IMG/VR virus record: IMGVR_UViG_2529292905_000017
Location: 1 to 18,298 of that record
Direction: 5' to 3' (one strand)
Length of the DNA: 18,298 bases
Origin: a virus
Lineage: Duplodnaviria > Heunggongvirae > Uroviricota > Caudoviricetes
Numbering within the stretch: position 1 is the stretch's first letter; every line of letters starts with the position of its first letter. A program made the position numbers. Shown here in pieces: positions 12,001 through 15,000 of this stretch.

Positions 12001-15000
12001 GACAAGAGGAAAGCAGAAGAGCTGGTTGTCACATTGTACAGACACAGAGGCGTTGATTATTGATCGCGTTATCAGTGAGGTGCTTGGGGAATATCCCGGG
12101 CTAATCAATGTTCTCCGGCAAAGGTACGAAGGACGGGGAATGAGCAAACTGAAAATGGCCGAAAGGTTAAATGCAGATCATCCTGATTGGTCGTTGGTTA
12201 CGTGCAGACGCCGAATTGATCAATGGTTGGGGGTATCTGAATTTATGTTATATGCCCCCATGCGCATGGCTTTTGTTACAGAGAAAAATGTTGCAAACTG
12301 ATCAATAAACTGCTTCAATCCGTATAAGCTTCGCAAAGCTGTATCGCGAGGCGAAACGCAAGTTTTTTTCGCACAAGGAAGCCACCGGAAGGTGGTTTTT
12401 TTGTGTCCGCGATATACAGTAGCGCAATAAATTCGCTGGTGGTTATTAATACCGTTCTTTCAGCTTGCTGGCTTTTTCGACAAGAGTTATTGGTGTGTCA
12501 CGTTAACCGGAAAAGGGAAAAAGACATGCTAAAACAGCAGGATATGACAGAAACCGCCAGAGTGGTGTTTAATGAATTAAGCGTTACCGAACCGGCGACA
12601 GTCGGGGAGATAGCGCAGAATACTTACCTTTCACGCGAACGCTGCCAGTTAATACTGACCCAGCTGGTTATGGCGGGTCTGGCAGACTATCAGTTCGGTT
12701 GTTACAGACGCCTTCCGCAGTGAAGGCTTTTTTATTTGTGGTAAATGGGCGGCTGGTGGGTGTTAGGGGCACCCACCAGCCATCTGCTCATGCGTTGGGT
12801 TCACAAGCAAACCTCAGGCCCACTGCTTTGCGCAAAAGCAGAATGAGCCTATCAGAGACAGGCTTAATGATCCATGCTTAATACTGTAAAAATATCCAGT
12901 TGTGAGTTAATCAACGCCGACTGCCTGGAATTTATCCGGTCGTTACCCGAAAATTCTGTTGACCTGATAGTCACGGACCCGCCGTACTTTAAAGTGAAGC
13001 CTGAGGGCTGGGATAACCAGTGGAAGGGCGACGATGATTACCTGAAGTGGCTGGACCAGTGTCTGGCGCAGTTCTGGCGGGTGCTGAAACCTGCCGGAAG
13101 TCTTTACCTGTTCTGTGGTCATCGCCTGGCATCTGATATCGAAATCATGATGCGTGAACGCTTCAGTGTGCTGAACCATATTATCTGGGCGAAGCCGTCC
13201 GGACGCTGGAACGGATGCAACAAGGAAAGCCTGCGGGCGTATTTCCCCGCCACAGAGCGCATTCTGTTCGCGGAACATTATCAGGGGCCGTATCGTCCGA
13301 AAGATGCCGGGTATGAGGCGAAGGGCAGGGCACTGAAACAGCATGTGATGGCCCCGCTGATTGCTTACTTTCGTGATGCGCGCGCTGCCCCGGGGATAAC
13401 GGCAAAACAGATTGCAGATGCCACAGGAAAGAAAAACATGGTGTCGCACTGGTTCAGTGCCAGTCAGTGGCAGTTGCCGAACGAAAGCGATTATCTGAAA
13501 TTACAGGCACTGTTTGCCAGGGTGGCAGAAGAGAAGCATCAGCGGGGGGAACTGGAAAAGCCCCACCACCAGCTGGTGGATACGTATACTTCACTGAACC
13601 GACAGTATGCGGAGCTGCAGAGTGAATATAAACATCTGCGGCGGTATTTTGGTGTGACGGCGCAGGTGCCGTACACGGATGTGTGGACACATAAACCGGT
13701 GCAGTTCTATCCCGGGAAACATCCGTGCGAAAAACCGGCAGAAATGCTGCAGCAGATAATCAGCGCAAGTAGTCGTCCTGGTGATCTGGTTGCGGATTTT
13801 TTCATGGGGTCGGGTTCAACGGTAAAAGCGGCGATGGCACTGGGGCGTCGTGCGATTGGTGTTGAGCTGGAGACCGGACGTTTTGAGCAGACAGTCAGGG
13901 AAGTTCAGGATTTAATCGTTTGAAACGGATGAGATTGCAGAATTAATTACGCACCATTATTATTCTGCTCCCGGCCCTTTAGCTCAGTGGTGAGAGCGAG
14001 CGACTCATAATCGCCAGGTCGCTGGTTCAAATCCAGCAAGGGCCACCATCACAAACCGCCATTAGCTTATCAGGAAGAGCAGACGACACGATAACAGGGT
14101 TGTTGGTGCGGGGGGCTGGTCCCCGATGGCGGTCCATTATCGGTATTCAGCGTTGTTAGCTCAGCCGGACAGAGCAATTGCCTTCTAAGCAATCGGTCAC
14201 TGGTTCGAATCCAGTACAACGCGCCATATTCATTCTTCCAGATTCCTTCCGGCAGAGCCTTATACTGGAATATACCTGGCTCAGGATATTGTTGAAAATA
14301 TTATATGTTTGTCAAAAATAAAAGTTCTGTTAAGTATTGATTGAGTGTTTGTTATACGGTCTAATGGTTTTTTCAGTATTAAATATTTATCATTCATATG
14401 GTGTGGGTAGAGTGAATATTGATGGGGCGTCGGGGTGTTTCATCCTTAGGCAGCGTATTGATATAGTCAATGCAGCACGAGCAAAGGCCTTCAGCCGTTT
14501 TACAGTTTTGTTCTGTACTCCTGATCGTCTTTCGGGAAGAGACGTTATTATTCTGAATAGTGATGCTATACAGAGGGTTTGCGATGAGTTCATGGTTGCT
14601 AATTCAGAATTATTTGCTCTTGTTCAGGAGTACAACAGAATAGCCAGGACCTGTGGTATGGATGAACTTCGGATTACTCATCTGGGGTAGATACATATCT
14701 GGATTATCACCTGTTACGGTAAAAAGTGATAGCTTACTGTTTTTGTGAATGGCATTGCAGCAGCCGGATAATGTCAGTGCTGGCTGACGGTGTGCTGGTG
14801 GCGGGTGTGGTGGTTGTTGCTTTCCCGTTGCTGAAAAAGAAAACGCCAGACTGTTAGCCGGGTATCAGTTAGCGGGAGAAATTTTTAAATACTTCACAAT
14901 TCAGGCGGTTGACTGTTGTCTGGTTTGCGGGGAGTTTGTTAAAAGAAACTGGCATGGTGAATCCCCCTGTGCGGAGGGGCAATCAGCGAGTAGGTATATG

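Follow-up and report, generated by a model that had tools for sequence, protein, structure and literature searches.

The methyltransferase-tRNA block of a stx-negative lambdoid E. coli prophage: known accessory genes and an unannotated tRNA-like element between the tRNAs

We analysed an 18,298-nucleotide stretch of viral DNA (positions 1 to 18,298 of the IMG/VR record IMGVR_UViG_2529292905_000017; this whole stretch is referred to as the window), which is the left half of a lambdoid E. coli prophage, and in it the block at 12874-14226 that carries a gene for a DNA methyltransferase followed by two tRNA genes. With high probability this region belongs to the accessory ('moron') segment that lies between the late antiterminator gene Q and the lysis genes of a stx-negative lambdoid E. 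coli prophage. All its named parts, namely, the methylase, ileZ, argO, and a cargo slot devoid of stx, are already known and they make up a common and widespread prophage module. The sole unusual part is an unannotated tRNA-like gene, called VAR here, in the supposedly empty gap between the two tRNAs. When 5426 complete E. coli genomes were examined, the 3.2 kb around the module were present in 529 of them at about 98.8% identity and at least 80% coverage, and with this conservation the module is not a chance pattern. The features on which the argument rests are as follows.

12874..13923, plus strand: beta-class N6-adenine DNA methyltransferase of the M.EcoGI/M.EcoGII family, orphan, 349 amino acids (aa) (Pfam, PADLOC, alignment to M.EcoGII)
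13935..13963, plus strand: candidate sigma-70 promoter TTGCAG-N17-TATTAT (read from the sequence), ending 9 nt before the first tRNA
13973..14048, plus strand: tRNA-Ile2, anticodon CAU, ileZ/ileX type (ARAGORN; Rfam 72.5 bits)
14056..14136, plus strand: VAR, an 81-nt tRNA-like element at the argN position (alignment to argN of an Stx2a phage and to phiP27; cloverleaf minimum-energy fold)
14150..14226, plus strand: tRNA-Arg, anticodon UCU, argO type, decoding AGA/AGG (ARAGORN; Rfam 70.1 bits)
14235..14893: slot for cargo, corresponding to the stx2AB cassette of Stx2a phages (blastn, window versus the Stx2a phage EH1910)

The initial annotation had described the block as a late regulatory module of the 933W type without a toxin. 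Its coordinates for the methyltransferase and the two tRNAs were correct, and the block is indeed homologous to the Q-to-stx region of Stx phages, being 93% identical to that of the Stx2a phage EH1910 and 87% identical to that of phiP27. There is no toxin either: Stx2A and Stx2B gave no tblastn match at E<=10 against the whole window, which, unlike Stx-converting phages, has no stxA or stxB between the tRNAs and the lysis genes. The term regulatory could not be retained as the block is accessory cargo heading the late operon. The comparison with 933W is apt for the tRNAs and not for the methylase, of which 933W/Sp5-type phages keep only the last ~100 nt after the terminator tR'. A similar layout is found in stx-negative lambdoid prophages, for example, PPyecE_EH1910 (LC567835) and the near-identical prophages H31 (NZ_CP102488) and H56, both annotated with PGAP, which have in common with the window the order Q, small open reading frame (ORF), methylase, slot, STnc100-like small RNA (sRNA), nanS-p and lysis genes. 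PPyecE_EH1910 differs in that it has no annotated tRNAs and its cargo is a plasmid stabilization protein, a transcriptional regulator, and TciA/TerB with a small ORF; H56 has the same tRNAs as the window but TerB/TciA as cargo.

It could be argued that a cryptic prophage in decay has left the whole block as inert debris and that no part of it is used. In H31, nanS-p/DUF1737 is truncated and there are partial hypothetical ORFs, in H56 there is an internal stop in TerB, the DUF3927 ORF downstream has 43 aa in the window versus 55 aa in H56, and the argN position has degenerated. However, the methylase ORF is full length with its DPPY and FxGxG motifs intact, both tRNAs score as high as those of cells and hardly vary over more than 100 loci, and Q, nanS-p and the holin gene are intact in the window. 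Together with the conservation of the region in the 529 genomes this makes inert debris a distinctly unlikely explanation.

The methyltransferase and its upstream setting

The product of the methylase gene matched Pfam N6_N4_Mtase (PF01555) over its full length (residues 29-340, E=4.7e-44) and PADLOC MTase_II at 1.8e-165. Its translation has the motif order of the beta class, with VTDPPYF at residues 33-39, a central target recognition domain (TRD), and DFFMGSGST, which contains FxGxG, near residue 308. A PDB search found no structure of M.EcoGII, and the best matches were other beta-class methyltransferases at 1e-25. When aligned to M.EcoGII, which also has 349 aa, 333 of 350 positions were identical with 2 gaps. 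It has been shown that M.EcoGII, which is prophage-borne, methylates adenine in any context, that it is not expressed in the lysogen, and that it is harmful to the cell if constitutively expressed (PMC5778455). M.EcoGI is its near-twin with 333 of 349 residues identical, and both enzymes come from prophages of E. coli O104:H4 C227-11 (Murray et al. 2018, PMC5778455). The M.EcoGII family has been described as 'a very large family' in E. coli prophages with a close homologue in phage 1720a-02 (PMC5778455), a phage that was among the top DNA matches of the window. Homologues in STEC, E. coli strains that produce Shiga toxin, with about 93% similarity have been listed, by prediction, as 'nonspecific' orphans and no motif was found for them in lysogen methylomes (PMC6602927).

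The window enzyme is thus like M.EcoGII and M.EcoGI in its length, in the DPPY-TRD-FxGxG order, in being prophage-borne, and in having no partner nuclease. We infer from this kinship that it is a non-specific adenine methyltransferase of the broad anti-restriction type and not one half of a restriction-modification (R-M) system, and correct labelling, of this gene as of the tRNAs and the slot, is the main value of the analysis. The claim that it has no cognate nuclease holds as far as the window and the annotated near-identical prophages go. The neighbours of the methylase are the Q-like gene, a 65-aa ORF and the tRNAs; no nuclease-like family was found beside it in the window, apart from RusA and DUF968 upstream, and no restriction gene adjoins it in H31 or H56, which is unlike a Type II R-M system with its adjacent endonuclease gene. 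Because the methylase is a member of the non-specific M.EcoGI/M.EcoGII family a cognate nuclease is not expected.

Two points weigh against this assignment. The identity to M.EcoGII of about 95% is approximate because the reference was taken from a PDF table (Suppl. Table S1 of PMC11551740) that had been read by machine, evidently with some errors, and the approximately 17 substitutions that distinguish the window allele, whose non-specific activity is predicted from sequence, are concentrated in residues ~173-277, in the TRD/linker. The alternative would be a sequence-specific orphan, either Dam-like or left over alone from a Type II R-M pair, that acts on host or phage gene regulation. The match to MTase_II in PADLOC, the normal size of the central region, and the location of most of the differences in that region would be in keeping with it. 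Against it stand the high identity to M.EcoGII, for which methylation of adenine irrespective of context has been shown, the predicted lack of specificity of the STEC homologues, which left no motif in lysogen methylomes, and the lack of a neighbouring nuclease gene, and we regard it as highly improbable.

Upstream of the methylase the following features were found.

11738..12301, plus strand: Q-like late antiterminator gene (Pfam DUF1133 2.9e-105 and Phage_antitermQ 2.6e-07; PHROG 753 'anti-termination protein Q-like' 1.6e-75)
12382..12402, plus strand: intrinsic-terminator-like hairpin CCACC-GGAA-GGTGG followed by T7, candidate tR' (read from the sequence)
12526..12723, plus strand: conserved 65-aa ORF (PHROG 331, 1.4e-37), a hypothetical protein in H31, H56 and the loci L001-L003
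12710..12735, plus strand: second terminator-like hairpin, GCCTTC-CGCAGT-GAAGGC with a T-run, upstream of the methylase (terminator scan and sequence reading)

Homology of the window with EH1910, phiP27 and PPyecE_EH1910 starts at about 12394-12428 and Q differs in each of them. The first hairpin lies within the Q-specific segment that is not common to the Stx2a phage, the homology to EH1910 beginning at 12425, and the terminator scan lists the same hairpin on the opposite strand. We infer a late promoter immediately behind Q, with the methylase accessible only to antiterminated transcription. Behind two terminator-like hairpins the methylase would be silent in the lysogen, and after induction Q-modified RNA polymerase from the late promoter would read through the hairpins and transcribe it. 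The methylase would then modify adenines of the phage DNA during its replication, showing hardly any or no preference for particular sequences, and the packaged genomes would resist many of the restriction systems of the next host, a role for which no partner nuclease is needed. It weighs against this scheme that the expression timing is read from terminator-like hairpins and from the literature on relatives.

The 65-aa ORF ends inside the second hairpin, has a weak TrmB-like helix-turn-helix match (E=0.008), and is common to phages with three Q types; it could be either a protein or part of a leader RNA. An upstream arrangement with PR'-tR' and the sRNA StxS, as in Sakai Sp5, was ruled out for the window since the PR'-tR' segment of Sp5 has no homology in the window, the homology starting only at 13822, after tR'. 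In Sp5 (L127 1585-1765, NC_002695.2) tR' abuts a remnant of about 100 nt from the 3' end of an M.EcoGII-type methylase, and from this junction it appears that recombination put the Q933/PR'/StxS module in the place of the small ORF and of most of the methylase. The full-length methylase module of the window has the arrangement found in other Stx2a phages, in phage 1720a-02 and in phiP27. In Stx2a phages three clusters have been reported, two of putative proteins of ~50 aa and one of proteins of ~352 aa (PMC10462455).

The two tRNAs

ARAGORN called exactly two tRNAs over the 18.3-kb window and both of them score far above the Rfam gathering score for tRNA, which is 29. That they are decoders of AUA and AGA, as had been proposed, was upheld when they were compared with K-12 tRNAs, and AGG is also read. 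The tRNA with the CAU anticodon is identical to K-12 ileX at 68 of 76 positions, including C4, C5 and the whole anticodon arm; its differences from ileX in the acceptor and anticodon stems are compensatory, and it is annotated as tRNA-Ile or ileZ in H31, phiP27 and Sakai. Judged by these identities it is a tRNA-Ile2 that would decode AUA after lysidine modification. The tRNA with the UCU anticodon is identical to K-12 argU at 56 of 77 positions, where the anticodon and the D and T loops are identical and whole stems have been swapped in a compensatory manner. The near invariance of ileZ and argO across the loci is to be read qualitatively since the diversity per segment is inflated by non-homologous replacements upstream and downstream.

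These two tRNAs have the order, the spacing and the position relative to the slot of ileZ and argO in the ileZ-argN-argO cluster of Stx phages such as Sakai Sp5 (NC_002695) and Stx2a_1447 (AP012536). Plunkett et al. are said to have described, in 1999, ileZ-argN-argO upstream of stx in 933W. The candidate promoter in front of the first tRNA has the same hexamers and the same spacing in Sp5, where a start site driving the tRNAs has been mapped (PMC7547250), and its -35 hexamer was not accepted by the consensus scan. Since this candidate promoter is conserved with Sp5, the tRNAs may also be made in the lysogen, and the array is probably transcribed both from its own promoter and as part of the late transcript.

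Such an array would supply the two scarcest E. coli decoders, tRNA-Ile2 for AUA and tRNA-Arg(UCU) for AGA/AGG, and it would help in translating the AT-rich cargo and the late genes downstream; in other words, they are helper tRNAs of the usual kind, for AUA and AGA/AGG. The cargo has a GC content of 0.32-0.42. In the 108-aa ORF that occupies the slot, 3 ATA, 3 AGA and 3 AGG codons make up 9 of 108 codons, which is 8%, as against an E. coli average of less than 1% for the three codons together. There are 6 ATA codons among the 111 codons of iraM, and 4 of the 97 holin codons are ATA, AGA or AGG.

The tRNA-like element VAR and its relatives

The spacer between the two tRNAs had been said to lack a recognisable third tRNA. 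No detector calls one in 14049-14149, neither ARAGORN nor Rfam at E<=10 in searches of 3.8 kb and of 131 nt, but the spacer is not empty as VAR lies there at the argN position. From argN it keeps the acceptor stem CCGCCAT/ATGGCGG (7 bp, identical), the D arm, the T stem, the discriminator T and CCA, while the anticodon arm and the variable region are replaced by a different and longer sequence. This part pairs as a long stem of about 7 bp (ACGAC-A-C / G-G-GTTGT) with the loop GAUAACA, in which position 33 is A, or alternatively as a 7-bp hairpin with a 3-nt loop. In neither pairing is there a canonical 5-bp anticodon stem with a 7-nt loop and U33, and because it lacks such a loop VAR cannot decode. 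The T-loop of the window allele is GGCTGGT compared to TTCGAGT, and it departs from the consensus T54-Psi55-C56 ... A58; TTCGAGT is kept in the alleles of phiP27 and of locus L041. The Stx-phage cluster differs in having a tRNA-Arg(UCG) as its middle gene and not a non-decoding tRNA-like element.

VAR is not confined to the window. In a first scan of 124 sequences (120 IMG/VR loci, the window and reference loci), 34 were of the VAR type, none of which was called by ARAGORN, about 83 had an intact tRNA-Arg(UCG), and a few had argN/argO fusions or anticodon variants. The 47-nt core of VAR was found in 1252 of the 5426 complete E. coli genomes, always unannotated and in 1220 of them at 99% identity or higher, compared to 765 genomes with a 55-mer of the 933W-type argN. 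A tRNA-shaped, non-decoding gene is thus unannotated in about one quarter of complete E. coli genomes, and its invariant relative in the core genome, described below, is listed as a protein.

The same replacement explains the record of phiP27 (AJ298298, Stx2e), where the order is methylase, ileZ, a 101-nt gap, argO and stx2e: only ileZ and argO are annotated there, with the gap between them, because of a VAR-type replacement at argN. Like the window, phiP27 has a full-length methylase (88% aa identity), two annotated tRNAs and an unannotated tRNA-like element with an identical middle section; unlike the window it has the TTCGAGT T-loop and stx2e in the slot, and its overall DNA identity with the window is only 87%.

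The D loop of VAR and the 5' strand of its anticodon stem (GGAAGAGCAGACGACA) match not argN but a second element, which we call X.

345334-345414 of K-12 NC_000913.3 (L141 4335-4415; also in loci L129-L131, L133-L137 and L140): element X, 81 nt, annotated only as the coding sequence xtpA/yahM

With this match the possibility that the spacer is argN with random filler was ruled out, as the middle of VAR aligns to X. In K-12, X lies within the annotated coding sequence xtpA and overlaps the start of yahM; the XtpA translation had no Pfam match, and X is not detected by the Rfam tRNA model. The fold of X is a cloverleaf in which the anticodon stem has 7 bp and its loop 6 nt, X has its acceptor, D and T arms in common with phage argN, and a conserved TTGACA-N16-CATAAT lies about 100 nt upstream of it. 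A scan for 79-82-nt elements with the same acceptor ends, done with one genome per species, gave 12 loci of which 9 were X, 2 were from Brenneria, and 1 was a copy of VAR in another E. coli genome. The sources of the 9 X loci are E. coli, Shigella flexneri, E. albertii, E. whittamii, E. ruysiae, Escherichia sp. E1V33 and a metagenome-assembled genome of Proteobacteria. X is present in 5168 of the 5426 E. coli genomes. Its upstream flank is partly conserved (~85-90%, a rough alignment estimate) and its downstream flank is unalignable right after CCA.

More distant elements were also seen. Those of Brenneria, a plant-associated enterobacterium (L132 4086-4166 and L139 4286-4366), and of the IMG/VR phage contig L174 (2264-2343) agree with the E. 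coli elements in the acceptor stem and the 3' end and resemble them in the T arm. Their 7-bp anticodon stem is a different one, and their 7-nt loop, GUGACAG, looks canonical. An element in the phage contig L106 has the same acceptor and T arms and again a different 7-bp anticodon stem. In a MAFFT alignment the anticodon arms of VAR, X and the Brenneria-type elements fall in different registers and one structure line would not fit them all. Literature searches found no paper on VAR or X.

VAR is most likely a non-decoding relic; it would be carried along in the tRNA array as such or as a processing spacer. At the same site the decay is outright in other prophages, where argN/argO fusion chimeras and deletions are seen. 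For CGA, the codon of argN, the host already has an abundant reader in tRNA-Arg(ICG), which is a plausible reason why argN, and not ileZ or argO, is dispensable. There are, however, three observations that a relic does not readily explain. X is identical at 81 of 81 positions across E. albertii, E. whittamii, E. ruysiae and E. coli despite diverging flanks, with one change in S. flexneri; when the window is compared with phiP27, the linkers on the two sides of VAR differ at 2 of 7 and 5 of 13 positions and there is 1 difference in the first ~58 nt of VAR; and the stem substitutions among VAR alleles mostly keep the pairing.

The alternative is that VAR is functional and belongs to an undescribed family of tRNA-like RNAs that do not decode and occur in enterobacteria and their phages, with an acceptor stem in common with phage argN, with an extended anticodon stem of about 7 bp, and with X as the core-genome member. 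It might serve the processing or stability of the tRNA/late transcript, act as a decoy or ligand for a nuclease or an enzyme that binds tRNA, or be a target of recombination. Apart from the three observations above, the cloverleaf fold, the closer match to X than to argN in the D loop and the 5' anticodon-stem strand, the near uniformity of the core among the 1220 genomes, and the common acceptor and T arms with differing 7-bp stems in the Brenneria, L174 and L106 elements would fit with it. Variation among VAR alleles is confined to the T-loop, a single base in a loop, the mismatch site, and C/U positions opposite G, and this conservation suggests constraint. Recombinational spread could also explain the pattern: there are only two to three independent VAR lineages and the low diversity may reflect recent spread by recombination, and there is no fully compensatory (double) substitution within VAR. 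Furthermore, the T-loop differs among alleles (GCGGGT, GGCGGGT, GGCTGGT, CCGGGT, TTCGAGT) and is scrambled in most of them, including that of the window, which argues against the need for an L-shaped tRNA-like fold. VAR also assorts freely with cargo and occurs with or without the methylase, and arrays with intact argN, fusions or deletions persist too. For these reasons a functional VAR seems to us rather unlikely. A published tRNA-shaped gene that adjoins mobile DNA and acts outside decoding is a precedent that bears only on the reading of VAR as functional, and it has no sequence relationship to VAR. If VAR and X were expressed and functional, the best-studied bacterium would gain a new class of tRNA-like RNA; if they are not, they are a record of how phage tRNA arrays decay, and there would be grounds to re-examine the annotation of xtpA/yahM.

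Several variants at the tRNA sites were seen among the other IMG/VR loci. In L017, L040, L078 and L115 the 5' half of argN is fused to the 3' half of argO, the halves being joined in the anticodon-loop sequence CCTTCTAAGC that the two genes share; here neighbouring tRNA genes have recombined with each other, and the resulting deletion leaves the acceptor stem mismatched. The body of argN carries the anticodon TCT in L026 and L073, GCG in L114, and GCT with a long anticodon stem in L106. In L093 the body of ileZ has CGT in place of CAT.

The cargo slot and the genes around it

The boundaries of the slot were defined by comparing the window with the EH1910 locus (L001). Homology over 12425-14234, at 93%, ends 8 nt past argO and resumes at 14894 of the window, which corresponds to 46 nt after stx2B. 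The 1368 bp between these points in the EH1910 locus (4635-6002), which hold stx2AB, have no counterpart in the window, and in their place there are 659 bp with two ORFs. These two ORFs and the features that follow the slot are listed here.

14364..14690, plus strand: 108-aa protein (PHROG 2873, 4.3e-68); the ORF is open from a TTG at 14337
14726..14857, plus strand: DUF3927/TciB-like ORF of 43 aa (PGAP 'DUF3927 family protein' in H31; PHROG 1470 'TciB-like' 7.8e-13)
14923..15112, plus strand: STnc100-family prophage sRNA with its own terminator, hairpin 15082-15103 (Rfam RF02076, 128 bits versus a gathering score of 47, E=5.6e-29; terminator scan)
15138..15473, minus strand: iraM-like anti-adaptor gene (NCBIfam NF007393 4.7e-48, above cutoff; PGAP in H31)
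15719..17587, plus strand: nanS-p type sialate O-acetylesterase gene (Pfam DUF1737, SASA, DUF6645)
17660-17953: holin gene (Pfam Phage_holin_2_1)

The 108-aa ORF occupies the position of stxA and has a GC content of 0.39-0.42. Its product had no match in Pfam, NCBIfam or PADLOC, and thus no similarity to a toxin family in Pfam or PADLOC, and a search of 5.8 billion proteins gave only close 'hypothetical protein' entries from E. coli and Shigella; PGAP leaves this ORF unannotated in H31. The AlphaFold2 model, made from a shallow alignment of 9 sequences, had a mean pLDDT (predicted local distance difference test score) of 39.9, which is too poor for a fold search. In the window the stx slot is filled by cargo other than stx. 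Among the IMG/VR loci the slot holds Stx2, TerB/TciA, the 108-aa ORF, or other sequence, and there is little linkage between this cargo, the state of the middle tRNA, and whether a full methylase is present. What the slot illustrates is the swapping of cargo at fixed boundaries.

Over the window as a whole the gene order begins with integrase, excisionase and exonuclease, followed by dicB and ydfC and then by the immunity and replication genes. It continues with hokD, DUF968 and RusA, the Q-like antiterminator, the methylase and tRNAs, the cargo, and finally the nanS-p esterase and the holin. The STnc100 sRNA sits after the cargo slot and before iraM and nanS-p, and a 2026 preprint links STnc100 to the PasD sRNAs.

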